Shown piece after piece: positions 1,659 through 32,403 of a stretch of 32,403 nucleotides of DNA. The stretch comes from a virus (taxonomy: Duplodnaviria; Heunggongvirae; Uroviricota; Caudoviricetes). The stretch spans positions 1 through 32,403 of the IMG/VR virus record IMGVR_UViG_2617270968_000008; one strand, written 5' to 3'. The notes beneath the pieces were generated by a model. It saw only the letters and a program-made list of their open reading frames with translations, was not told where the DNA came from and searched no databases. Numbering within the stretch: position 1 is the stretch's first letter; each line of letters begins with the position of its first letter. The translations under genes were made by a program, and so were the position numbers.

Positions 1659-4130
1659 TTAAGAATCAGCCTGACTCGGGATCAGTTTTTGCCAGATAAC
1701 TGAAACGTATTTTGCCTGGTAACGGGCGTCATCAAGTGCATTATGGCGCTCACCTTCGAATGGAATAGCCGTTCTGGCATCGAAGTCTATGGCTTTCCCC
1801 AGCTCAACGATTGTGCGTACATCGCGATCGTTGTAGTAACGCCACGGGCAGGGGATCCCCTGCCGTTCGTATGAACGGCGCAAAATCGTGTTGTCGAAGT
1901 TGGCTCCATTTCCCCAAACCTGAACAAAAAATTCACCGGAGTTTTCGTCGATAAATTCTCGCAATTGTAACAGTGCATCATCTAACGGGATTTCATCGGT
2001 CATAATGGCAGATTGCGCTTCGCGTGATTGCTTAAGCCACCATTTAATGGTGTCCCGATCAATGACTCCGCCAGCAGTTTCCAGATCGATAGTCTTACTA
2101 AATTCCGGTCCCATATCTCCGGTTTGCGGATCGAAAAATATTGCACCTATTGAGATGATCGGGGCATCAGGATTTTTTCCCATGGTTTCAAGGTCTATCA
2201 TTAGATGGTCACACGTCCTGCTGGTGGATGTGATTACGTGATGACTGTTCACCTTAATTGAGTAATTTGCCGTCTCGCCAGTTTCATTATCGCTATCGTG
2301 ATGCTGATTGCCGCCAGTGTTCTCCTTGTGTGGATGTTCAGCGCCTTCCATTTCCTCCGGATCATCTTCCTGAACTTCAACCTGATACTCTTCATCGAAT
2401 GTTTCCTGGTATGTTGCGTCGCCCATCACCGCGCCACAATCAGGGCAATTGCCGCCGCCGGTCTGACCGCAGGCGGTGCAGACTTTTTCCACTTCCTGTT
2501 GCGCCACTGGTTCAGGCTGTTTCGTTTCTGGCTCGTTTTGTAACGCATTTGGGCTGTTTTGTTCCGCTTTTTGGTAGTTCCGTTCCGATTCATGCTGGTT
2601 CTGGTTTACAGAATCGCGGGTCTGGATCCCCTTAACCCATTTCGGATCATTCGGGTCGCTAATCCCTGCAACAAATTCTCCGCGAGAGGCAGCAAGCAAC
2701 TTATCGGCGTCAGGCTGGCTGATATTGGCTGCCTGCATAATTTTGTTTACTTCGTCAGCGGTAACTTTTATCGGCTCTGGTTGTTCTGAATCTTCAGCGG
2801 TATCTACATTTTGCGGTAAGCCCGTGTATGTGCCATTTTTTCGGGCAAAATATTCTTCTTTTGTGATTTCAGTGGCGCCAGCAGCCAGTGCCTTATCCAG
2901 ACCAGAGAGTTTGTTTGCGCGACCGTATTTTTCTCCGTCCTTATCTGCGAAGAGGAAATAGAACGGCCCCTCACGCTCTACAGATGGTTCGACTTCCACT
3001 TTGCATTCGGTTTTTTCGTTGTCCGGAATTGCCGTTTCCACTGCATCAGTTTCTGGTACTGGCGACGAGAGAGTATCAGTTGCGCTCTGATTTCTTCCTT
3101 CATCTTCAAACACGCCCTTTGTAGTCAGGTATTCAGTAATGTATTTGTTCAGTGCCACAGGGTCTTTGTGAATGTCGATCGGACGTTCACGGACAAGGCC
3201 AAAAATAGTCTGGCGGTCGTAGCGAAGGGCATCAGGCTGTTTGCGCATTGATGCCGAGATACGCTTCCAGTCTTCGCGGTCGTTGTCGATAACTTCATTT
3301 TTTGCCCAGCGATGGATGCTGCCGTCAATGTTTCCGGCATCCACATCACCAGGCCAGAGAGCGTAGGCCAGTTCGTCATCCAGTGTTTTCCATGTCTGCT
3401 TGTATTCGCGATGAATGGCAGCAATGACCAGGCTGATTTTTCCTGTTGAATTTTCAGTGTGCTGTTGATTGACTCTGGCGCGGGCGAGATCAACAACAGA
3501 CGTGTATTTTCCGGTTTCCTTGCGTTCACCTTCGCGACGTTTTTTCCAGATGCGCATCTCTGCCTGAATTTCGGGCCATTTGGCACCAGGCTTACATTTA
3601 TGCTTAACCCACCCGATGGCATGCAGCTTAAGCTCCGGATACATGGCGTTAACATCTGGCATTTTCATCAACGCTTCAACGATATGTCCGTCGAATGTTG
3701 CCATGTCTTCCTGCAACAATTCCTGTGCGCTAATAACCATATCAACGGTGATGTTTTCACATGTGTCGAACTTAACCATGACAGCGTTCTGTACTTCAGG
3801 GGCCAGCTTGTCAAAAGTGACGTTCATCGGATCGGATTCAGTCTCAACCGGGACAAAGGAAGCAGACTCCTCATCCCAGCGGTTTTCCTGCATATATTCA
3901 GCATCCCAGGAATCGAGGGCAGGGCGGGGTATACCGGGTTTATCCTCGCAGACAAGAAATTTATAAGCGCAGTCCTGAGCAGCCGGATAATGTTCCAGGA
4001 ATTGCCAGTGAAATTTTGCGCGGGCGCGACGTTCATCACCGGCTTCAATGGCAGTGGCTACAGCGACGGCACCTTCTTCCTTTATTGCCTGTTCGTCCGG
4101 AATGGCGGCGCAAATAAAGACTTTACTCAT
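1659..4130 (-). CDS. Prophage exonuclease (exodeoxyribonuclease VIII-like) with C-terminal DEDD-type 3'-5' exonuclease domain
   Basis: 823-aa ORF; C-terminal about 180 aa carry DnaQ-like motifs (MIDLETMG ... HNALDDARY); acidic low-complexity middle region with a CxxC...CxxC zinc-ribbon (CTACGQ...CPDCG). Position matches the recombination/exo gene of lambdoid early-left operons. Confidence 0.7.
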   Translation of the reverse strand: MSKVFICAAIPDEQAIKEEGAVAVATAIEAGDERRARAKFHWQFLEHYPAAQDCAYKFLVCEDKPGIPRPALDSWDAEYMQENRWDEESASFVPVETESDPMNVTFDKLAPEVQNAVMVKFDTCENITVDMVISAQELLQEDMATFDGHIVEALMKMPDVNAMYPELKLHAIGWVKHKCKPGAKWPEIQAEMRIWKKRREGERKETGKYTSVVDLARARVNQQHTENSTGKISLVIAAIHREYKQTWKTLDDELAYALWPGDVDAGNIDGSIHRWAKNEVIDNDREDWKRISASMRKQPDALRYDRQTIFGLVRERPIDIHKDPVALNKYITEYLTTKGVFEDEGRNQSATDTLSSPVPETDAVETAIPDNEKTECKVEVEPSVEREGPFYFLFADKDGEKYGRANKLSGLDKALAAGATEITKEEYFARKNGTYTGLPQNVDTAEDSEQPEPIKVTADEVNKIMQAANISQPDADKLLAASRGEFVAGISDPNDPKWVKGIQTRDSVNQNQHESERNYQKAEQNSPNALQNEPETKQPEPVAQQEVEKVCTACGQTGGGNCPDCGAVMGDATYQETFDEEYQVEVQEDDPEEMEGAEHPHKENTGGNQHHDSDNETGETANYSIKVNSHHVITSTSRTCDHLMIDLETMGKNPDAPIISIGAIFFDPQTGDMGPEFSKTIDLETAGGVIDRDTIKWWLKQSREAQSAIMTDEIPLDDALLQLREFIDENSGEFFVQVWGNGANFDNTILRRSYERQGIPCPWRYYNDRDVRTIVELGKAIDFDARTAIPFEGERHNALDDARYQAKYVSVIWQKLIPSQADS

Positions 4131-13653: not shown

Positions 13654-14028
13654 ATGCTCATAGATTTGGTTTTACCTTACCCGCCGACGGTGAACACTTA
13701 CTGGCGACGCCGTGGCAGCACATATTTTATCTCGGAGGAGGGAAAGCGTTATCGCCGGGCTGTGGCGCTTATTGTTCGCCAGCAGCGGCTGAAATTAAGC
13801 CTGTCCGGAAGGCTGGCGATAAAGGTGATTGCAGAGCCACCGGATAAGCGTCGTCGCGACCTGGACAATATTCTGAAAGCACCACTGGATGCGCTGACGC
13901 ATGCCGGACTTCTCATAGACGACGAGCAGTTTGATGAAATCAATATTGTGCGCGGTCAGCGCGTTCCTGGGGGGCGGCTGGGCGTGAAGATTTACCCCAT
14001 AATGCTTGAAGGGCAGGTCAAAAAATGA
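13654..14028 (+). CDS. rusA: Holliday junction resolvase RusA
   Basis: 124-aa ORF; RusA-like motifs (PPTVNTYWRRRG, DKRRRDLDNILKAPLDALTHAGLLIDDEQ) with the conserved acidic catalytic cluster; AGAGGTGA RBS. Confidence 0.85.
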   Translation: MLIDLVLPYPPTVNTYWRRRGSTYFISEEGKRYRRAVALIVRQQRLKLSLSGRLAIKVIAEPPDKRRRDLDNILKAPLDALTHAGLLIDDEQFDEINIVRGQRVPGGRLGVKIYPIMLEGQVKK

Positions 14029-14846
14029 AACTGGAAGATTTACCGAAATACTACTCCCCAAAATCCCCCGGCCTGACTGATGCATCGGCCTCAACGTCGA
14101 AAGATGCGCTGAGTATCACTGATGTGATGGCCGCGCAGGGCATGACACAGAATCGGGCTGAGATGGGGTTTTCTGCGTTCCTTGGGAAAATGGGCATTAG
14201 TATGAATGACAGAGAGCGGGCAACAGAATTGCTGACAGAATATGCACTCAGTCGGTGTGATCGCGTGGCGGCGTTAAGAAAACTCCCGGCAGAAATAAAA
14301 CCGGCAGTGATGCGTATTATGGCTTCGTATGCGTTTGAAGATTATGCCCGCAGCGCGGCGAGCAAAAAACAGTGCTCCTGCTGTCACGGAAACAAATTTA
14401 TTGAAAGCGAGGTTTTTACAAACAAGATCCAGTATCCGGATGGTAAGCCGCCGGTATGGGCAAAGTGTACGAAAGGTGTGTATCCGTCTTACTGGGAAGA
14501 ATGGAAAAAAGTCAGGGAGGTGGTAAAAGTTGCCTGTCCGGAGTGTGGCGGAAAGGGTGAGGTTTCCACCGCCTGTAAGGATTGCCGTGGGCGTGGTGTC
14601 GCCATTCATCGTGAAGAGTCGGTAAAACGTGGTATGCCTGTTATCAGAGACTGCCAGCGTTGTGGTGGTCGTGGCTGTGAAAGACTACCATCAACGGAGG
14701 CATTTAATGCCATATGCAAAGTGACGAGTGCTATCACGCTTGATACGTGGAAAAAATCAGTGAAACGCTTTTACGATACGTTGGTGGTTCGGTTTGACAT
14801 TGAAGAGGCATGGGCGGAGCGGCAGTTAAAGAGGGTAACGCGATAG
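14025..14846 (+). CDS. Late-gene antitermination protein Q (phage 21/82 type, zinc-binding)
   Basis: 273-aa ORF ATGA-coupled to rusA; multiple CxxC pairs (CPECGGKG, CKDCRGRG, CQRCGGRG); directly followed by a late promoter and terminator. Confidence 0.7.
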   Translation: MKLEDLPKYYSPKSPGLTDASASTSKDALSITDVMAAQGMTQNRAEMGFSAFLGKMGISMNDRERATELLTEYALSRCDRVAALRKLPAEIKPAVMRIMASYAFEDYARSAASKKQCSCCHGNKFIESEVFTNKIQYPDGKPPVWAKCTKGVYPSYWEEWKKVREVVKVACPECGGKGEVSTACKDCRGRGVAIHREESVKRGMPVIRDCQRCGGRGCERLPSTEAFNAICKVTSAITLDTWKKSVKRFYDTLVVRFDIEEAWAERQLKRVTR

Positions 14847-15420: not shown

Positions 15421-16470
15421 ATGCTTAATACTGTAAAAATATCCAGTTGTGAGTTAATCAACGCCGACTGCCTGGAATTTATCCGGTCGTTACCCGAAAA
15501 TTCTGTTGACCTGATAGTCACGGACCCGCCGTACTTTAAAGTGAAGCCTGAGGGCTGGGATAACCAGTGGAAGGGCGACGATGATTACCTGAAGTGGCTG
15601 GACCAGTGTCTGGCGCAGTTCTGGCGGGTGCTGAAACCTGCCGGAAGTCTTTACCTGTTCTGTGGTCATCGCCTGGCATCTGATATCGAAATCATGATGC
15701 GTGAACGCTTCAGTGTGCTGAACCATATTATCTGGGCGAAGCCGTCCGGACGCTGGAACGGATGCAACAAGGAAAGCCTGCGGGCGTATTTCCCCGCCAT
15801 AGAGCGCATTCTGTTCGCGGAACATTATCAGGGGCCGTATCGTCCGAAAGATGCCGGGTATGCGGCGAAGGGCAGTGCACTGAAACAGCATGTGATGGCC
15901 CCGCTGATTTCTTACTTTCGTGATGCGCGCGCGGCCCTGGGGATAACGGCAAAACAGATTGCAGATGCCACAGGAAAGAAAAACATGGTGTCGCACTGGT
16001 TCAGTGCCAGTCAGTGGCAGCTACCGAACGAAAGCGATTATCTGAAATTACAGTCGCTGTTTGCCCGGGTGGCAGAAGAGAAACATCAGCGCGGTGAACT
16101 GGAAAAGCCCCACCACCAGCTGGTGGATACGTATACGTCACTGAACCGGCAGTATGTGGAGCTGCAGAGTGAATATAAGCATCTGCGGCGGTATTTTGGT
16201 GTGACGGCGCAGGTGCCGTACACGGATGTGTGGACACATAAACCGGTGCAGTTCTATCCCGGGAAACATCCGTGCGAAAAACCGGCAGAAATGCTGCAGC
16301 AGATAATCAGCGCAAGCAGTCGTCCGGGTGACCTGGTTGCAGATTTTTTTATGGGCTCAGGTTCAACGGTAAAAGCGGCACTGGCGCTCGGGCGTCGTGC
16401 GATTGGCGTTGAGCTGGAGACCGGACGTTTTGAGCAGACAGTCAGGGAAGTTCAGGATTTAATCGTTTGA
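15421..16470 (+). CDS. Orphan DNA methyltransferase (N6-adenine/N4-cytosine, beta class)
   Basis: 349-aa ORF with catalytic DPPY motif (IVTDPPYF) near the N-terminus and SAM-binding FxGxG motif (DFFMGSGST) near the C-terminus; no adjacent restriction endonuclease gene. Confidence 0.8.
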   Translation: MLNTVKISSCELINADCLEFIRSLPENSVDLIVTDPPYFKVKPEGWDNQWKGDDDYLKWLDQCLAQFWRVLKPAGSLYLFCGHRLASDIEIMMRERFSVLNHIIWAKPSGRWNGCNKESLRAYFPAIERILFAEHYQGPYRPKDAGYAAKGSALKQHVMAPLISYFRDARAALGITAKQIADATGKKNMVSHWFSASQWQLPNESDYLKLQSLFARVAEEKHQRGELEKPHHQLVDTYTSLNRQYVELQSEYKHLRRYFGVTAQVPYTDVWTHKPVQFYPGKHPCEKPAEMLQQIISASSRPGDLVADFFMGSGSTVKAALALGRRAIGVELETGRFEQTVREVQDLIV

Positions 16471-16519: not shown

Positions 16520-16595
16520 GGCCCTTTAGCTCAGTGGTGAGAGCGAGCGACTCATAATCGCCAGGTCGCTGGTTCAAATCCAGCAAGGGCCACCA
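16520..16595 (+). tRNA. ileZ: tRNA-Ile2 (anticodon CAU, lysidine type)
   Basis: Folds as a canonical cloverleaf (acceptor GGCCCTT/AAGGGCC, D-arm GCTC...GAGC, anticodon loop CTCATAA, T-loop GGTTCAAATCC, encoded CCA); closely resembles recalled E. coli ileX. Confidence 0.8.
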
Positions 16596-16604
16596 TATCA
16601 CATA

Positions 16605-25589: not shown

Positions 25590-25965
25590 ATTCAGCCGTT
25601 CCGTGCTGTATCATGGCCGTTGCCAGTGATGATGGCACCAGAACACGCATACCCCGTAACGCCAGCTCAACGGGACGACCTGTCTCCGGGCAATACCCCA
25701 TTACTTGCAGGCACTTCCGTACCCGGACGGCTTTAACATCATCCGGAGCATCCGTGTTGTTCAACTGCTCACCATCGTCTGTGTGATTTTGATCAGCCCC
25801 ACTCTCATCAGAGTGCATAATGCCCTCCGGGGAAACAGCAAGCTCCTCTTCCCACTCAGACACACGTTGCGCAATATCCGCAGCACTCCCCGACATATCC
25901 GCCTCGCGCCCCAGCAGGCCAGCCAGTTGACGAAGACGATTCAGATTTTCTTCTTTTGTTGCCAT
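25582..25965 (-). CDS. DNA packaging protein FI-like
   Basis: 127 aa from MATKEENLNRLRQ with AGGAGG RBS; acidic protein in the lambda FI position directly upstream of FII on the same strand. Confidence 0.6.
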   Translation of the reverse strand: MATKEENLNRLRQLAGLLGREADMSGSAADIAQRVSEWEEELAVSPEGIMHSDESGADQNHTDDGEQLNNTDAPDDVKAVRVRKCLQVMGYCPETGRPVELALRGMRVLVPSSLATAMIQHGTAEYA

Positions 25966-26016
25966 CTCAGCCTCCTGTGAAAAAAGACACGGGGGCATTT
26001 CGCCCCCGCTCACGGA

Positions 26017-26202
26017 TTATTTCACCTGCACCACCACAAACTCATCCGGATCCGGCAGCACCATCAGCGGTGCGGACTGCGTCATGGTGAATTCACGGGC
26101 CGGATCGCCCACAGTCAGCCAGTGTTTCGGATAACGGGAAGATCTCCCTGTGATTAAGCTGGGGATCAGAATGCTGGGGCGTCGTCCGAACAGCATACTC
26201 AA
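26017..26202 (-). pseudogene. Major capsid protein E, C-terminal remnant (inverted)
   Basis: Short frame ending just upstream of FI on the minus strand (….PLMVLPDPDEFVVVQVK); the upstream part of the frame reads across the junction with the Z C-terminal fragment. Assignment by position and weak recall. Confidence 0.35.
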
Positions 26203-26881: not shown

Positions 26882-27044
26882 ATGGCAACACCAAATCCCC
26901 TTGAGCCGGTAAAAGGTGCCGGTACCACTCTGTGGGTTTACAACGGCAAGGGTGATGCTTATGCAAACCCGTTGTCAGACGATGACTGGCAGCGACTGGC
27001 TAAGGTGATGGCGCGCCGTTCCGCTACAGCTTCAGCGCCCTGAA
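26882..27044 (+). pseudogene. Major tail protein V, N-terminal fragment
   Basis: [42 protein letters not shown] matches the lambda gpV N-terminus for about 42 aa, then diverges and stops; ORF below the track cutoff, read from sequence. Confidence 0.7.
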
Positions 27045-29292
27045 GGACCGCCATAATGCCGTTGAGGTGAACTGGATTGACCCGAACAACGGCTGGGAGA
27101 CGGCGACAGAGCTTGTGGAGGATACGCAGGCCATTGCCCGTTACGGTCGTCACGTCACGAAGATGGATGCCTTTGGCTGTACCAACCGGGGGCAGGCGCA
27201 CCGTGCCGGGCTGTGGCTGATTAAAACGGAACTGCTGGAAACGCAGACCGTGGACTTCAGCGTGGGTGCAGAAGGGCTTCGCCATGTACCGGGCGATGTC
27301 ATTGAAATCTGTGATGATGACTATGCCGGTATCAGCACCGGCGGGCGCGTGCTGGCGGTGAACAGCCAGACCCGGACGCTGACGCTCGACCGTGAAATCA
27401 CGCTGCCATCCTCCGGTACCACGCTGATAAGCCTGGTTGACGGAAGTGGTAATCCGGTCAGCGTGGAGGTTCAGTCCGTCACCGACGGACTTAAGGTGAA
27501 AGTAAACCGGGTTCCTGACGGCGTTGCAGAATACAGTGTGTGGGGGCTGAAGTTGCCGACGTTGCGTCAGCGCCTGTTCCGCTGTGTGAGTATCCGTGAG
27601 AACGATGACGGCACGTATGCCATCACTGCCGTGCAGCATGTACCGGAAAAAGAGGCCATCGTGGATAACGGGGCGCACTTTGACGGCGACCAGAGCGGCA
27701 CGGTGAATGGTGTCACGCCGCCAGCGGTGCAGCACCTGACCGCAGAAGTCACCGCAGACAGCGGGGAATATCAGGTGCTGGCGCGCTGGGACACGCCGAA
27801 GGTGGTGAAGGGCGTGAGCTTCCTGCTTCGCCTGACCGTGGCAGCGGACGATGGCAGTGAGCGGCTGGTCAGCACGGCCAGGACGACGGAAACTACATAC
27901 CGCTTCACGCAACTGGCGCTGGGAAATTACAGGCTGACAGTCCGGGCAGTAAATGCGTGGGGACAGCAGGGCGATCCGGCATCGGTATCGTTCCGGATTG
28001 CCGCACCGGCAGCACCGTCGCGGATTGAGCTGACGCCGGGCTATTTTCAGATAACCGCCACGCCGCATCTTGCTGTTTATGACCCGACGGTACAGTTTGA
28101 GTTCTGGTTCTCGGAAAAGCGGATTACCGATATCAGGCAGGTTGAAACCACAGCCCGCTATCTTGGTACGGCGCTGTACTGGATAGCCGCCAGTATCAAT
28201 ATCAAACCGGGCCATGATTATTATTTTTACGTTCGCAGTGTGAACACCGTTGGCAAATCGGCATTCGTGGAGGCTGTCGGTCGGGCGAGCGATGATGCGG
28301 AAGGTTACCTGGATTTTTTCAAAGGAGAAATCGGGAAAACACATCTGGCCCAGGAGTTGTGGACGCAGATTGATAACGGTCAGCTTGCGCCGGACCTGGC
28401 TGAAATCAGGACGTCCATTACGAATGTCAGCAATGAAATCACGCAGACCGTCAATAAAAAACTGGAAGACCAGAGTGCGGCAATCCAGCAGATACAGAAA
28501 GTTCAGGTTGATACAAATAATAACCTGAACAGCATGTGGGCCGTGAAACTGCAGCAGATGAAGGACGGACGCCTTTATATTGCGGGTATCGGAGCCGGTA
28601 TTGAGAATACGCCAGCAGGTATGCAGAGTCAGGTGCTTCTGGCTGCTGACCGGATTGCGATGATTAATCCTGCGAATGGCAACACAAAGCCGATGTTTGT
28701 TGGTCAGGGCGATCAGATATTCATGAACGACGTGTTCCTGAAACGCCTGACGGCTCCGACCATTACCAGCGGCGGTAATCCTCCGGCATTTTCCCTGACA
28801 CCGGACGGGCGGCTGACGGCGAAAAATGCCGATATCAGCGGTAACGTGAATGCGAACTCCGGGACGCTCAACAACGTCACGATTAACGAGAACTGTCGGG
28901 TTCTGGGAAAATTGTCCGCCAACCAGATTGAAGGCGATCTCGTTAAAACAGTGGGCAAAGCTTTCCCCCGGGACTCCCGTGCACCGGAACGGTGGCCATC
29001 AGGGACCATCACCGTCAGGGTTTATGACGATCAGCCGTTTGACCGGCAGATTGTTATTCCGGCGGTGGCATTCAGCGGCGCTAAACATGAGCGGGAGAAT
29101 AACGATATTTATTCGTCATGCCGCCTGATAGTACGGAAAAACGGTGCTGAAATTTATAACCGTACCGCGCTGGATAATACGCTGATTTACAGTGGTGTTA
29201 TTGATATGCCAGCTGGTCGCGGCCACATGACGCTGGAGTTTTCGGTGTCAGCATGGCTGGTGAATAACTGGTACCTTCTGCCCGTAAGGTGA
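27004..29292 (+). pseudogene. Host specificity (central tail fibre) protein J, C-terminal about 760 aa (N-terminal third deleted)
   Basis: Frame opens at 27004 after a stop; [46 protein letters not shown]... matches an internal region of lambda gpJ and continues to a C-terminus; no J N-terminal domain anywhere in the window. Confidence 0.8.
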
Positions 29293-30485
29293 ATGGTAAG
29301 GCGCTTTCAGCGGATATAACACTGACGCCGAAAGATATTGGTACGCTTAACTCAACAACAATGTCATTCAGCGGTGGTGCTGGTTGGTTCAAATTAGCAA
29401 CGGTAACCATGCCACAGGCGAGTTCTGTTGTTTCAATTACGTTGATTGGTGGTGCGGGATTTAACGTGGGGTCACCTCAACAGGCAGGTATATCTGAACT
29501 TGTTTTGCGTGCAGGTAATGGTAATCCGAAGGGGATTACTGGTGCTTTATGGCAGCGCACATCGACAGGGTTTACAAATTTTGCCTGGGTCAATACATCT
29601 GGTGATACTTACGATATTTACGTTGCAATCGGAAATTATGCGACTGGTGTAAATATTCAATGGGATTATACCAGTAATGCCAGCGTGACGATTCATACGT
29701 CACCAGCATATTCTGCTAATAAGCCGGAAGGGTTAACGGACGGTACAGTTTATTCACTCTATACGCCATCAGAGCAGTTTTATCCGCCTGGCGCACCAAT
29801 CCCGTGGCCATCAGATACCGTTCCGTCTGGCTATGCCCTGATGCAGGGGCAGACTTTTGACAAATCTGCATACCCGAAACTTGCAGCCGCTTATCCGTCA
29901 GGCGTGATCCCTGATATGCGTGGCTGGACGATTAAGGGCAAACCCGCCAGTGGTCGTGCCGTATTGTCTCAGGAACATGACGGCATTAAATCGCACACCC
30001 ACAGCGCCAGCGCATCCAGTACGGATTTGGGGACGAAAAACACATCGTCGTTTGATTACGGAACCAAATCCACGAATAACACCGGGGCGCATACGCACAG
30101 TCTGAGTGGCTCTACGGGGTCTGCCGGTGATCATACTCATGGTAATGGTATTCGTTGGCCAGGAGGCGGCGGTTCTGCGTTAGCATTTTATGATGGCGGT
30201 GGGTTCACTTATGTCCAGGATTCACAGTATCAAGTAAGCCCGGGGACTTCTTCCCGTAGATCGTATTATCAACGTATTCAGACACAGTCAGCAGGTGCTC
30301 ATACCCACTCGCTGTCTGGTACTGCAGCAAGTTCTGGCGCACATGCACATACTGTAGGTATTGGTGCGCATACGCACTCCGTTGCGATTGGTTCACATGG
30401 ACACACCATCACCGTTAACGCTGCTGGTAACGCGGAAAACACCGTCAAAAACATCGCATTTAACTATATTGTGAGGCTTGCATAA
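29289..30485 (+). pseudogene. Side tail fibre protein Stf, C-terminal portion
   Basis: Contains the [18 protein letters not shown] motif usually internal to Stf, and repeated GAHTHS tail-fibre repeats; lacks the long N-terminal region; followed by tfa. Confidence 0.6.
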
Positions 30486-31069
30486 TGGCATTCAGAATGA
30501 GTGAACAAGCACGGACCATAAAAATTTATAATCTGCTGGCCGGAACTAATGAATTTATTGGTGAAGGTGACGCATATATTCCGCCTCATACAGGTCTGCC
30601 AGCAAACAGTACCGATATTGCACCACCAGATATTCCTGCTGGCTTTGTGGCTGTTTTCAACAGTGATGAGGCATCGTGGCATCTCGTTGAAGACCATCGG
30701 GGTAAAACGGTTTATGACGTAGCGTCAGGGGACGAGTTATTTATTTCTGAACTCGGTCCGTTACCGGAAAATGTTACCTGGTTATCGCCGGAAGGGGAGT
30801 TTCAGAAGTGGAACGGCACAGCCTGGGTGAAGGATACGGAAGCAGAAAAAATGTTCCGGATCCGGGAGGCGGAAGAAACAAAAAACAACCTGATGCAGGT
30901 AGCCAGTGAGCATATTGCGCCGCTTCAGGATGCTGCAGATCTGGAAATTGCAACGGAGGAAGAAACCTCATTGCTGGAAGCCTGGAAAAAGTATCGGGTG
31001 TTGCTGAACCGTGTTGATACATCAACTGCACCTGATATTGAGTGGCCTACGAACCCTGTCAGGGAGTAA
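30485..31069 (+). CDS. tfa: Tail fibre assembly protein Tfa
   Basis: 194-aa product closely resembles recalled lambda Tfa ([79 protein letters not shown]). Confidence 0.9.
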
Positions 31070-31118
31070 TCATTGGGATTATGCCGCAGCACGTCTTAAG
31101 CAAGAACGTGCTGCGGTT
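30905..31118. repeat. Direct repeat, copy 1 (3' end of tfa plus downstream flank)
   Basis: About 200 bp nearly identical to 31955-32168, including GCGCCRCTKCAGGATGCTG...GTCAGGGAGTAATCATTGGGATTATGCCGCAG. Confidence 0.7.
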
Positions 31119-31123
31119 GGATG

Positions 31124-31792
31124 CTATTTTTTCCCTGAAGCGGAAAACATTACTACAGTACCTTGAACCTTGGTTTTAACATTCTCGAAATGCTCTGAGA
31201 GTATATGTGTTAAGCCTTCTTCGGAATCTTTTGTGTTTGAAAAGATGCCTTTCTGATTGTAAATGCGCATCAGTTTTTGACCGAAGCTATTGTGCACAAC
31301 TCCATCGCCAAGAATTGTGGCTCCGTATAGAGTTCCATCGTCAGTTAAGGCCTGCGCCGCATTGCGTATTACACAGCTTTTTGTAGATATATTTCCAGGC
31401 AGGCAGTGAAGAAGGTAAAACATGGAAATGGAATCAAATTGACCATGTAACGCCGCGGGATAAGGTTCAAAAACATCATGGCTAATTTTATGTTTAATTT
31501 TTGATTCCCCAGCCCTTGTAGATGCCGCGTTCAGGCTAGCTTCGTTCAAATCCATTAAAGATATCAGACTACTCTCAGGTACGTGAGTAAGGTAAAACCC
31601 AGTTCCAACACCAATATCCAGATGGTTGTTACCTACATGTTCCAGAAAGTGTGGAAGAAGGTGTTCCTTTGTAGGACATCCCCATGCAAGCCGATTTGAT
31701 ACTCCCAAAACCCACCAGTCATAAAGCTTTAGGGTAAGTGGTGTGTAAATTTTAGCCCCATCATCTGTGTTTTTTTTCATTGATTTCACCAT
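31124..31792 (-). CDS. Class I SAM-dependent methyltransferase (substrate unknown)
   Basis: 222-aa ORF with SAM-binding motif I (LDIGVGTGFY) and an acidic post-I residue; AT-rich; lies between the two direct repeat copies. Alternative start at 31780 (MKKNTDD) has a better SD (GGTGA). Confidence 0.65.
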   Translation of the reverse strand: MVKSMKKNTDDGAKIYTPLTLKLYDWWVLGVSNRLAWGCPTKEHLLPHFLEHVGNNHLDIGVGTGFYLTHVPESSLISLMDLNEASLNAASTRAGESKIKHKISHDVFEPYPAALHGQFDSISMFYLLHCLPGNISTKSCVIRNAAQALTDDGTLYGATILGDGVVHNSFGQKLMRIYNQKGIFSNTKDSEEGLTHILSEHFENVKTKVQGTVVMFSASGKK

Positions 31793-31848
31793 GTTATAGT
31801 TTTATTTGTGAATTAAATCAATTATGGCGATGAATTACAAGGGGTTAA

Positions 31849-32118
31849 ATGCTGCCGCAGCATAGCGATATTGAAATAGCCTGGTATGCTTCGATACAGC
31901 AGGAGCCGAATGGCTGGAAGACCGTCACCACACAGTTCTACATCCAGGAATTCAGTGAGTATATTGCGCCACTGCAGGATGCTGTAGATCTGGAAATCGC
32001 AACGGAGGAAGAAAGATCGTTGCTGGAGGCATGGAATAAATATCGGGTATTGTTGAATCGTGTTGATACATCAACTGCACCTGATATTGAGTGGCCTGCA
32101 AATCCTGTCAGGGAGTAA
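31849..32118 (+). pseudogene. Tfa C-terminal domain remnant with unrelated N-terminus
   Basis: C-terminal 55 aa ([53 protein letters not shown]) duplicate the Tfa C-terminus; the N-terminal 35 aa are unrelated. Confidence 0.5.
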
Positions 32119-32168
32119 TCATTGGGATTATGCCGCAGACACGTCGTATGCAGGAACGTGCTGCGGTT
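31955..32168. repeat. Direct repeat, copy 2
   Basis: Second copy of the tfa 3' end and flank; with copy 1 it brackets the minus-strand methyltransferase gene. Confidence 0.7.
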
Positions 32169-32232
32169 AGTTTGTGAGCTTTCGATAGTGGTTGTTATTT
32201 TTGCCCTTATTTGTTCCGGAGGCCATGGTTCA

Positions 32233-32403
32233 ATGGTCCGTCTGCCCCCTGTGGTGATGTCAGCAAAATCAGCCACTGCGCGAACCACAATAGCCCGGGA
32301 AGATGCTGAAGATCACCAGGTAAAGCTATCAGCGCAGAAACTGGAAGAACTGCTCGCATCAATGGTTAAGGATGAGGTTGATCGCAATGATGGGATTTAT
32401 TGA
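32233..32403 (+). CDS. Hypothetical small protein
   Basis: 56-aa frame from MVRLPPVV (GGAGG about 10 nt upstream) ending at the TGA at the window end; start uncertain. Confidence 0.25.
   Translation: MVRLPPVVMSAKSATARTTIAREDAEDHQVKLSAQKLEELLASMVKDEVDRNDGIY

Follow-up and report, generated by a model that had tools for sequence, protein, structure and literature searches.

It is a textbook feature of lambdoid mosaicism that cargo is gained beside tail-fibre genes when recombination takes place at conserved boundaries between modules. Morons and other cargo in the region between the tail-fibre genes and the attachment site include lom and bor of lambda and the effector loci of the O157 Sakai prophages. 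Lambdoid morons and cargo have been treated by Juhala et al. (2000), Hendrix et al. (2000) and Tobe et al. (2006).

The gene order tfaD-ybcY-tfaX (b0561–b0563) is already annotated in prophage DLP12 of Escherichia coli K-12, and the locus is annotated in thousands of genomes. DLP12 resembles the window (the whole 32,403-nt stretch of viral DNA analyzed here) in gene order and orientation, with 96.9% nucleotide identity over window positions 30631–32095, and shares the ybcY<>tfaX spacer and the hairpin between the tfa and ybcY ends. It differs in that K-12 ybcY is a pseudogene with a 2-nt deletion in the A-run at codons 6–8, whereas ybcY in the window is intact. K-12 tfaX has a TGG-to-TGA change and diverges at its 3′ end, beyond which lies appY-ompT. 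Phages PhiR26_1, 2G7b, ev243, Turner, and Kati carry ybcY and the spacer at 99.3–99.7% identity to the window, and PhiR26_1 has the order stf-tfa-ybcY-tfaX, as in the window. In contrast to the window, these viable phages have an alpha/beta hydrolase gene and ompT downstream, and a truncated tfaX with an unrelated 3′ end. In 2G7b, an integrase gene follows ompT, and the upstream side consists of a different fibre module with a mere 150-nt tfa remnant.

The ybcY cassette and its tfa-derived repeats

The features of the right end of the window are as follows.
29289..30485, + strand: stf, C-terminal 398 codons (Pfam Collar and Phage_fiber)
30485..31069, + strand: tfa, tail fibre assembly chaperone, 194 aa, intact (Pfam Caudo_TAP, E=1.3e-44)
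30893..31118, + strand: repeat copy A, the last 58 tfa codons, the stop codon and a 49-nt flank with hairpin A
30950..31048, no strand: left crossover interval
31083..31117: hairpin A, ~12-bp GC-rich stem where the tfa and ybcY ends converge
31112..31935, − strand: cargo unit proper, ybcY and a 143-nt upstream region (blastn against Citrobacter freundii)
31124..31792, − strand: ybcY, class I SAM-dependent methyltransferase, 222 aa (Pfam; 99% nucleotide identity to K-12 ybcY)
31793..31850, no strand: AT-rich divergent spacer, 27% GC, with sigma-70-like hexamers
31849..32118, + strand: tfaX-type ORF, 89 aa, a chimeric scar (Caudo_TAP, phrog_2341)
31942..32168, + strand: repeat copy B, a tfa 3′ fragment and hairpin B (32132–32167)
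32059..32073, no strand: right crossover interval
32216..32403, + strand, running off the window: right end of the resident prophage, a DUF4376 pseudogene remnant (UTI89 annotation)

The N-terminal part of stf is gone through a J′-′stf deletion junction at 29270–29273, recognized as a break in collinearity with UTI89. None of the complete E. coli genomes contains this junction as a single uninterrupted match, and a scan for exact matches among species-representative genomes gave no hit. Records identical to the window annotate the product of 30485..31069 as a tail fiber assembly protein and have an ompW′ attachment-site fragment after the DUF4376 remnant.

A repeat search of the window identified one direct repeat of 226/227 nt (30893–31118 and 31942–32168) that is ~90% identical, and pairwise alignment agreed; this is far beyond chance. 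A 1-nt indel parts the repeat into a 197-nt segment (30893–31089 and 31942–32138, 89%) and a 29-nt segment (31090–31118 and 32140–32168, 90%). Copies A and B are spaced 1049–1050 nt apart. The search returned direct repeats only and no pairs of inverted repeats. An initial annotation had described a direct duplication of the tfa 3′ end at 30905–32168 around a methyltransferase gene; the duplication is real, extends over 58 codons, and includes that span. The coding parts of the copies differ at 22 positions, 14 of which are third codon positions, and 52 of 58 residues are conserved. The copies are therefore diverged functional alleles and not a fresh duplication.

Hairpin A has a predicted folding energy of −28.5 kcal/mol (z=−5.0) on the + strand and −23.9 kcal/mol (z=−5.7) on the − strand. 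It is followed by a weak U-tract on the tfa side and by none on the ybcY side, so a terminator belonging to the ybcY cassette is a weak claim. A CssrB match on the hairpin in the Rfam scan was below threshold.

The bracketed minus-strand gene was found as initially annotated, a 222-aa class I SAM methyltransferase gene. It is 99.0% identical over 669 nt to K-12 ybcY (NC_000913). The GC content is 41.1% in ybcY and 26.8% in the 56-nt upstream spacer, compared to 48.3% in the window and 48–50% in the flanks. Residues 5–222 align to the 218 positions of the phrog_2132 profile (E=4e-157), and ybcY homologues are 218 aa long. Translation probably begins at Met5 (31780), for a protein of 218 aa.

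Among 5,426 complete E. coli genomes, 3,832 (~71%) contain ybcY, and ~1,113 have the whole 2-kb arrangement of the window. In K-12, PhiR26_1, O121, ECGC74, and strain 146, ybcY is convergent with an upstream tfa or its remnant and divergent from a tfaX-type fragment. The cassette adjoins differing tail-fibre genes and is found at argU/DLP12, ompW, bioA-ybhB, and potB as well as in the viable phages 2G7b and PhiR26_1. In Citrobacter freundii, a locus without flanking tfa sequence shares only 31112–31935 with the window (91.8%, blastn). Homologues in Salmonella, Enterobacter, and Yersinia are stand-alone, monocistronic chromosomal genes, and no conserved neighbours were found at these loci. The genomic context therefore gives no clue to the substrate. 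The dN/dS of ybcY is 0.11–0.22, which indicates that the gene, intact in the window, is under purifying selection.

Crossovers and the history of the locus

Crossover intervals were read from SNPs. On the right, 31935–32073 is identical to tfaX of O121 and O157, and from 32074 on the sequence exactly matches the resident tfa 3′ end of loci that have no insert. Beyond this point, R26-, 2G7b-, O121-, and O157-type tfaX pass into unrelated DNA. The right crossover lies at 32059–32073, with the tfaX lineage to its left and the resident tfa 3′ end to its right, and by these SNPs copy B is demonstrably a chimera of DLP12-type tfaX and the resident tfa 3′ end. On the left, resident-type SNPs extend to 30949 and donor (DLP12-type) SNPs start at 31049, an interval defined only against the alleles compared, namely the R26, O121, and K-12 donor types and four empty-site loci. 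Empty sites, in which tfa, the hairpin and DUF4376′ are contiguous with no insert, were found in 20 genomes; all four that were examined are at ompW′/yciE. At the empty-site loci, the DNA of 32216..32403 lies directly 3′ of tfa.

The cassette is most likely a DLP12-like, moron-like ybcY cargo unit that was placed by homologous recombination through tfa arms. The resident would have been an ompW-site-type prophage, and recombination with a DLP12-type phage would have set the cassette downstream of its tfa. A first crossover between the two tfa genes would fall at 30950–31048, and a second, between tfaX and the resident tfa 3′ end, at 32059–32073. The resident tfa 3′ end would automatically be left duplicated as copy B, and the cassette could be lost again by loop-out through repeats A and B. 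We infer the direction and timing of these events from sequence comparison, and the same product would result from a single tfaX crossover combined with an unrelated upstream exchange.

The median E. coli genome has ~3 places with sequence resembling the tfa 3′ end. The C-terminal domain is the conserved part of Tfa proteins, as described in PMC9608196, which cites North et al. 2019. Because of this conservation and copy number, the flanks act as portable homology arms. The initial annotation had proposed that recombination between the tfa genes of two prophages captured a cargo gene. The chimeric copy B, the SNP switch in copy A, and the empty sites bear out the recombination. The capture does not stand: many prophages, integrated at several different sites, already have tfa′-ybcY-tfaX, and recombination moved an existing cassette.

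Instead of the ancestral state, the 20 unoccupied sites may represent later deletions by loop-out. A history in which the occupied state is ancestral, all 20 unoccupied loci arose by A x B loop-out, and nothing was imported here is rather unlikely. Occupied loci are the commoner (~1,113 vs 20). One unoccupied locus (L004) has A-type SNPs through ~31054 and then a B-type hairpin, the pattern expected from a simple A x B crossover, and three others (L005–L007) are A/B mosaics. However, these three have B-type 'GCAAATCC/GTAAATCC', a B-type hairpin and mixed upstream SNPs, a combination that cannot come from one A x B crossover in the window sequence. Unoccupied loci are also more diverse (94.7–99.6% identity to the query) than the near-clonal occupied loci, which fits older diversity, and SNPs absent from both window copies were seen in part in the unoccupied alleles. 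Recombination between tfaX and a full tfa 3′ end would still be required for copy B, because tfaX of R26, 2G7b, O121, O157, and K-12 continues differently after 32073–32096.

The divergent spacer and the tfaX reading frame

In the tfaX-type ORF, residues 31–86 match only positions 75–130 of the 131 in the Caudo_TAP profile, and the first ~30 residues have no match. The N-terminal fibre-binding domain of Tfa is absent from the ORF, which is not a full-length Tfa, and PGAP annotates it as a tfa pseudogene without an N-terminus. Its first 31 codons are the ybcY upstream region read through, and the C-terminal Tfa domain follows. Copy B is thus fused to another N-terminal frame, as initially annotated, but that frame is the methyltransferase upstream region read backwards and not unrelated sequence. 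An origin of the 31 codons from another tfa type was rejected, with 31793–31945 found solely with ybcY by distant blastn. One odd blastn match to 31793–31945 is a deletion derivative. A DinI remnant under 5′ tfaX was also dropped, with no Pfam match and E >= 0.3 in tblastn with two DinI proteins. PGAP annotates a DinI remnant under tfaX in two records, and an intact dinI adjoins the Citrobacter homologue.

In K-12, the tfaX frame is stopped by the TGG-to-TGA nonsense codon; in 2G7b it has a 7-nt deletion, and other 3′ ends occur elsewhere. Judged by these lesions, tfaX is a decaying scar.

The divergent spacer contains promoter-like hexamers on both strands. On the ybcY side these are TTGATT-17-TATAAC (31821 to 31793, minus strand), and on the tfaX side ATGGCG-15-TTAAAT (31824–31850, plus strand). 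The predicted −10 elements abut or overlap the annotated ybcY and tfaX start codons. In K-12, an RpoD-holoenzyme SELEX peak and an H-NS site were mapped to the ybcY<>tfaX spacer (PMC3946193), and the K-12 spacer hexamers are conserved in the window. ybcY may be expressed in the lysogen from its own H-NS-silenced sigma-70 promoter. The tfaX start would not be transcribed from the predicted promoter because the −10 element overlaps the tfaX ATG.

That the repeated element is itself functional, either as a small TfaX protein (a free Tfa trimerisation domain that might hamper the building of fibres in other phages) or as the Rfam sRNA IS009, is highly improbable. The window type keeps the 89-aa ORF unbroken, the ORF belongs to a recurring family (phrog_2341), and the SELEX RNA-polymerase site in K-12 is upstream of tfaX. 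The ORF is nonetheless broken in several lineages, and the overlap of the predicted −10 element with the tfaX ATG also argues against a protein role. Copy A matches IS009 (RF02111) at 223.8 bits and copy B at 112.5 bits, with a gathering score of 117. The IS009 model is nevertheless sparsely base-paired and, in both K-12 and PhiR26_1, is internal to the tfa coding sequence. Substitutions in the repeat also follow a coding-sequence pattern, and the match was judged to be coding sequence. IS009 was left out of the ncRNA analysis in PMC5331693. The annotations of Rfam IS009, "tfaX", and a 45-aa "hypothetical protein" seem to derive secondarily from the coding sequence of tfa and its scars.

The window-type TfaX has the whole conserved C-terminal (trimerisation) domain of Tfa. 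There is a very slim chance that the lysogen produces TfaX as a decoy, which would spoil the assembly of tail fibres in Tfa-dependent phages that superinfect the cell or are co-induced. If so, the cassette would be a two-gene module for lysogenic conversion and interference, spreading via its own homology arms. A milder reading, that the arms make ybcY a recombination-mobilised and reversibly excisable cargo cassette, is largely supported.

Tandem duplication of the tfa 3′ end in situ, with later insertion of the methyltransferase by illegitimate recombination, could also leave an insert flanked by direct repeats, but it is scarcely tenable. The copies are ~10% apart, mainly at synonymous sites. 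At 31935–32073, copy B does not differ from tfaX of unrelated prophages that occupy other attachment sites, which contradicts an in-situ origin, and the same sandwich is found in K-12 DLP12 and in free phages.

The tail-fibre variation cassette suggested in the initial annotation, in which programmed recombination would swap in tfaX as an alternative C-terminus for tfa (or stf), in the manner of the invertible G, C, and P segments, deserves almost no credence. Alternative tfa genes do occur at the tail-fibre loci of Mu, P1, and e14 (tfaP/tfaE/pinE in e14), but the idea is not supported here, since the repeats are direct and not inverted, no invertase or other recombinase gene was found between stf and the prophage end, and tfaX is damaged in several lineages. 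The duplicated part of Tfa is, in addition, conserved and not specificity-determining.

YbcY as a putative methyltransferase and the cassette as phage cargo

YbcY matches Methyltransf_12, _23, _25, and _11 above the Pfam cut-offs. In an alignment of 29 sequences, G61, G63, and G65 of motif I (LDIGVGTG) are invariant, as are D81 and D106. An invariant N-terminal block, YDWWVL..SN..AW.C, is specific to the YbcY family. The AF2 model (pLDDT 90) has strands alternating with helices and gave 1,407 PDB matches at E<=0.001 with Foldseek (best E=3e-11), the best 50 of which are class I methyltransferases. Fold neighbours among the matches listed include PmtA (PDB 8ys9), JHAMT, PfPMT, and SgvM, with TM-scores of 0.53–0.66 for the fold matches. 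Weak NCBIfam matches to PmtA, RquA, and CpaM scored 16–18 bits against curated cut-offs of 175–390. No characterised close homologue was found in the homologue searches, and papers mentioning ybcY or tfaX give no function for either gene. In a PADLOC search the sole match was to mad2 and was not significant (E=0.009), and membership of the cassette in a defence system was dropped.

The YbcY model resembles small-molecule or lipid methyltransferases and not DNA methyltransferases, and the protein would act alone on a metabolite or lipid. Modification of DNA by YbcY, as a phage orphan methylase or for anti-restriction, is hardly credible: DNA methylases are common on prophages and the window has one at 15421–16470 (N6_N4_Mtase), but YbcY contains no [DNS]PP[YFW] or PCQ motif and matches no DNA-methylase Pfam family, the best 50 of its 1,407 Foldseek matches are small-molecule or lipid enzymes or uncharacterised proteins with no DNA methyltransferase among them, and its homologues outside phages are stand-alone chromosomal genes. 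These results agree with the initial expectation that the enzyme probably does not methylate DNA. The accompanying link to YmfD of e14 is not supported. YmfD (b1137, 221 aa) is nearly equal in length to YbcY, prophage-borne, and likewise annotated as a generic class I methyltransferase. It has no detectable similarity to YbcY, however (best BLASTP against e14 E=15, 7/26 identities), and is int-proximal in e14, beside ymfE and not tfa; the gene in the window is that of DLP12 YbcY. PmtA (a bacterial phosphatidylethanolamine N-methyltransferase), JHAMT, PfPMT, and UbiG are like YbcY in size and in their Rossmann-type fold (TM 0.61–0.65), but PmtA and other small class I methyltransferases are just 13–21% identical to it. 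ybcY is a reasonable target for functional study, being intact, under purifying selection, and present in ~71% of complete E. coli genomes.

The arrangement has little significance beyond tidy annotation and is ordinary phage mosaicism. Its value is as a clean example of the Tfa C-terminal domain as a homology arm, with the crossovers of the cargo transfer readable to within 15 and 99 nt. The window differs from DLP12 in that recombination has given its tfaX a complete tfa 3′ end, with ompW-site prophage DNA after it. As with morons, ybcY lies between sequences that are contiguous in 20 genomes and has a composition different from its flanks. It is an extra gene of lower GC, encoded on the strand opposite to its neighbours, that has a promoter-like region of its own and occupies a classic cargo region in some genomes but not in others. 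Unlike the morons named above, it is bracketed by 226-nt arms from a neighbouring essential gene, and its crossovers can be read from SNPs.

Organization and occurrence of the ybcY cassette

The class I SAM methyltransferase gene ybcY lies between two direct copies (A and B) of the 3′ end of tfa, the tail fibre assembly chaperone gene. The repeats are 226/227 nt long, share 89–90% identity and differ by one 1-nt indel. No inverted repeats were found in the repeat region by a repeat search of the window. Repeat search, alignment, and Pfam matches agree with the layout of repeats and ORFs in the initial annotation.

Features at positions 30485–32168
30485–31069, plus strand: tfa, intact, 194 aa (Caudo_TAP, E = 1e-44)
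30893–31118, plus strand: copy A, with the final 58 tfa codons, stop codon, and stable hairpin
31083–31117: hairpin A (RNA fold −28.5 kcal/mol, z = −5.0)
31124–31792, minus strand: ybcY ORF, 222 aa (passes Pfam cut-offs for Methyltransf_12, _23, _25, and _11)
31849–32118, plus strand: tfaX-type ORF, 89 aa, containing copy B (Tfa match at residues 31–86 only, to Caudo_TAP profile positions 75–130 of 131)
31942–32168: copy B

GC content is 41% in ybcY, 48% in the window, and 27% in the 56-nt spacer upstream of ybcY. In K-12, genomic SELEX located one site for the RpoD holoenzyme and one for H-NS within the spacer between ybcY and tfaX (PMC3946193). The hexamers reported for the K-12 spacer, a putative promoter by sequence, are conserved in the window, and the promoter-like −10 of tfaX overlaps its ATG. 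The tfa/ybcY hairpin is strong and has no U-tract on the ybcY strand. A 45-aa ORF (31042–31179, plus strand; RefSeq hypothetical protein WP_001309429.1) crosses the tfa stop, hairpin A, and the opposite-strand 3′ end of ybcY, and is probably an annotation artefact.

A prophage in UTI89, S88, APEC O1, ATCC 11775, and many more strains matches the final 2 kb of the window at 100% identity. In these strains it ends ~300 nt past the window, at an ompW fragment adjoining yciE-trp. The 2-kb arrangement is present in 1,113 of 5,426 complete Escherichia coli genomes, and ybcY in 3,832. In a phage collection, a ybcY query matched 16 records (14 over most of its length), including PhiR26_1, 2G7b, ev243, Turner, and Kati. 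PHROGs assigns the methyltransferase to phrog_2132 and the second ORF to phrog_2341, both families of unknown function.

The window is almost a whole lambdoid prophage. Its late region is laid out as in Stx phages, minus stx, with Q, a DNA methylase, two tRNAs, and a NanS-p-like esterase.

Other features of the prophage
20–1315: integrase gene
1659–4130, minus strand: gene for an 823-aa protein with a C-terminal Rv2179c-like 3′-5′ exoribonuclease domain, adjoining the integrase gene
14025–14846: Q antiterminator
15421–16470: DNA N6/N4 methylase
16520–16681: tRNA-Met and tRNA-Arg
18210–20081: NanS-p-like sialate O-acetylesterase (DUF1737, SASA, and DUF6645)
22789–23856, minus strand: 'Beta_protein' (PF14350) gene, between the lysis genes and Nu1
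24261–24809: Nu1

The prophage is defective. Relative to the UTI89 prophage, it has an inverted 1.16-kb head-gene fragment (24984–26142) and an ~8-kb deletion, including the tape-measure gene, that joins the tail gene U region to mid-J (~27006–27008). A second deletion joins the 3′ end of J to mid-stf at 29270–29273 (noted region 29270–29292), removing the J C-terminus, lom, and ~630 stf codons. This J'-'stf junction was not found in one piece in any complete E. coli genome of the collection. The ybcY cassette is intact inside the decaying prophage.

Recombination through tfa

Column-by-column comparison with tfaX and tfa alleles revealed that copy B is a chimera. Positions 31935–32073 are identical to tfaX of O121 and O157, nearly so to PhiR26_1 and strain 146, and differ from resident-type tfa alleles at ~20 sites. 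From 32074 to beyond 32200 there are 0–1 differences from loci with a single tfa directly before the same downstream DNA, and in R26-, 2G7b-, O121-, and O157-type tfaX unrelated sequence begins exactly at the equivalent of 32074. The switch at 32073/32074 places the right crossover within 15 nt (32059–32073). In the window tfa, nine positions between 30832 and 30949 show the resident-type base, and from 31049 through hairpin A the bases are those of the donor (DLP12-type), placing the left exchange in 30950–31048. The imported patch is ~1.0–1.1 kb.

An existing ybcY cassette probably moved into the resident prophage through tfa homology arms. Of the initial proposal, homologous exchange via tfa stands, and gene capture does not, as the cassette pre-existed. 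One crossover in tfaX and a later, separate exchange upstream would give an identical product; the right junction alone is strictly demonstrated. The suggestion of a tail-fibre variation cassette was rejected.

The coding parts of A and B differ at 22 sites, 14 of them third codon positions, and the encoded peptides agree at 52 of 58 residues. This pattern shows two diverged alleles of tfa genes that were once functional; they did not arise by recent duplication. The 58 duplicated codons correspond to the helical domain at the Tfa C-terminus. Tfa chaperones are conserved in this domain and vary in the N-terminal fibre-binding domain (PMC9608196, citing North et al. 2019). Query sequences from the tfa 3′-end region matched a median of 2–3 places per E. 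coli genome (maximum 8–10), making tfa 3′ ends abundant substrates for homologous exchange. A B-type hairpin with ~22 nt of flank, matching window 32132–32190, also follows tfaR of Rac-type prophages in many genomes (H251–H259), so hairpin and tfa 3′ end travel as one unit across prophage types.

A synthetic junction query was built to keep any single match to an occupied locus below 80% coverage; it found tfa, hairpin, and DUF4376' contiguous in 20 genomes. Whichever way these loci arose, related prophages do not all carry the methyltransferase gene at a repeat-free site, so the initial annotation is not refuted on this count. The four contiguous loci examined are all at the ompW'/yciE site, as in the window-type prophage. 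Their single tfa 3′ ends are A/B mosaics with differing switch points. Unoccupied loci could represent the ancestral state or have formed by loop-out; wider diversity (94.7–99.6% identity to the query) favours the ancestral state for most, and EFF60 looks like a simple A × B recombinant.

Cassette contexts and tfaX

The unit of tfa 3′ fragment, hairpin, ybcY, spacer, and tfaX has varied neighbours and integration sites.

Contexts of the cassette
K-12 DLP12: argU site; cassette, then appY-ompT
O121 RM8352, PhiR26_1, and 2G7b: cassette, then alpha/beta hydrolase gene and ompT (in 2G7b, integrase gene next)
2G7b: downstream of a different fibre module; tfa remnant 150 nt
Strain 146: adjoins potB, downstream of an S74-peptidase-type fibre; tfa remnant only 135 nt
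Strain 82.0312 and relatives: DLP12 remnant int'-tfa'-ybcY-ompT, without tfaX
ECGC74: cassette adjoins ybhB-bioA
O157:H7 E32511: Mn-catalase/yciE/yciF/yciG block separates tfa from hairpin

In O157:H7 E32511 (L018, 653–3453), cargo accreted serially at one spot: a manganese catalase gene and yciE, yciF, and yciG paralogues lie upstream of ybcY-tfaX, and an IS66 element follows tfaX. In ECGC74 (L020, 4569–6217), tfaX is separated by a sensor diguanylate cyclase gene from a further tfa hairpin copy with downstream flank, which matches window 32133–32190 and adjoins ybhB-bioA; the cyclase gene is a second cargo bracketed by tfa-end scars.

A Citrobacter freundii contig shares window 31112–31935 alone (91.8% identity), without the tfa flanks, and so defines the cargo proper; the match ends ≤7 nt from each repeat boundary. 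The N-terminal frame of the 89-aa ORF, initially called unrelated, is indeed non-Tfa, and by this match is the region upstream of ybcY, read on the strand opposite to ybcY. Next to the Citrobacter ybcY homologue, on its downstream side, is an intact gene of the DinI family (L026, 4745–4996). In two E. coli records (L020, L023; 4244–4339), PGAP marks remnants of DinI pseudogenes, here upstream of ybcY. DinI similarity was not confirmed in the window (no Pfam match; tblastn E at least 0.3).

tfaX is a scar. K-12 tfaX has TGG→TGA at the equivalent of 32034, 2G7b tfaX has a 7-nt deletion (31985–31991), 3′ continuations differ among several lineages, and PGAP annotates tfaX as a pseudogene with missing N-terminus. 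The Rfam sRNA candidate IS009 (RF02111; gathering score 117) matches both repeat copies, with 223.8 bits at 30828–31026 and 112.5 bits at 31872–32075. The model has few base pairs and, in both K-12 and PhiR26_1, falls within tfa coding sequence. The match is regarded as a by-product of coding-sequence conservation; IS009 seems to represent tfa coding sequence rather than an RNA gene.

YbcY and comparison with K-12

An alignment of 29 YbcY sequences has invariant motif I (LDIGVGTG), acidic D81 and D106, an FDS..Y.LH.L block, and a family-specific N-terminal block, YDWWVL..SN..AW.C. Most homologues (218 aa) and the PHROG profile begin at Met5, and the predicted −10 (31798–31793) abuts the annotated ATG, so translation probably starts at 31780, for a product of 218 aa. 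Confidence in the AlphaFold model is high (pLDDT 90, pTM 0.86). Its best PDB fold neighbours are phosphatidylethanolamine N-methyltransferase, juvenile-hormone acid methyltransferase (JHAMT), phosphoethanolamine methyltransferase, SgvM, CysG, and NodS (13–21% identity, TM-scores 0.53–0.66), and no DNA methyltransferase is among the 50 structure matches listed. Profile and sequence searches of solved structures agree (JHAMT and UbiG, E = 5e-6 to 1e-3). NCBIfam matches to CpaM, RquA, and PmtA are all far sub-threshold. A motif search of YbcY found neither [DNS]PP[YFW] nor PCQ.

dN/dS of 0.11–0.22 against Citrobacter, Salmonella, and Enterobacter orthologues indicates that the protein is maintained by selection. 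Salmonella, Enterobacter, and Yersinia homologues (56–65% identity) lie on the chromosome as lone genes, flanked by neither phage genes nor conserved partners, which suggests that YbcY would act by itself on a metabolite or lipid. What YbcY methylates is the question of real value at this locus.

The link to e14 YmfD suggested in the initial annotation was rejected (BLASTP, protein versus protein, E = 15). The gene is ybcY from DLP12, a cryptic prophage of K-12 (99% identical), and is a pseudogene in K-12 (L002) through a 2-nt deletion in an A8 run at codons 6–8 (window 31778–31792 region). DLP12 has the same sandwich, annotated tfaD-ybcY-tfaX. The locus had been annotated before, and its mechanism is the mosaicism ordinarily seen in phages.
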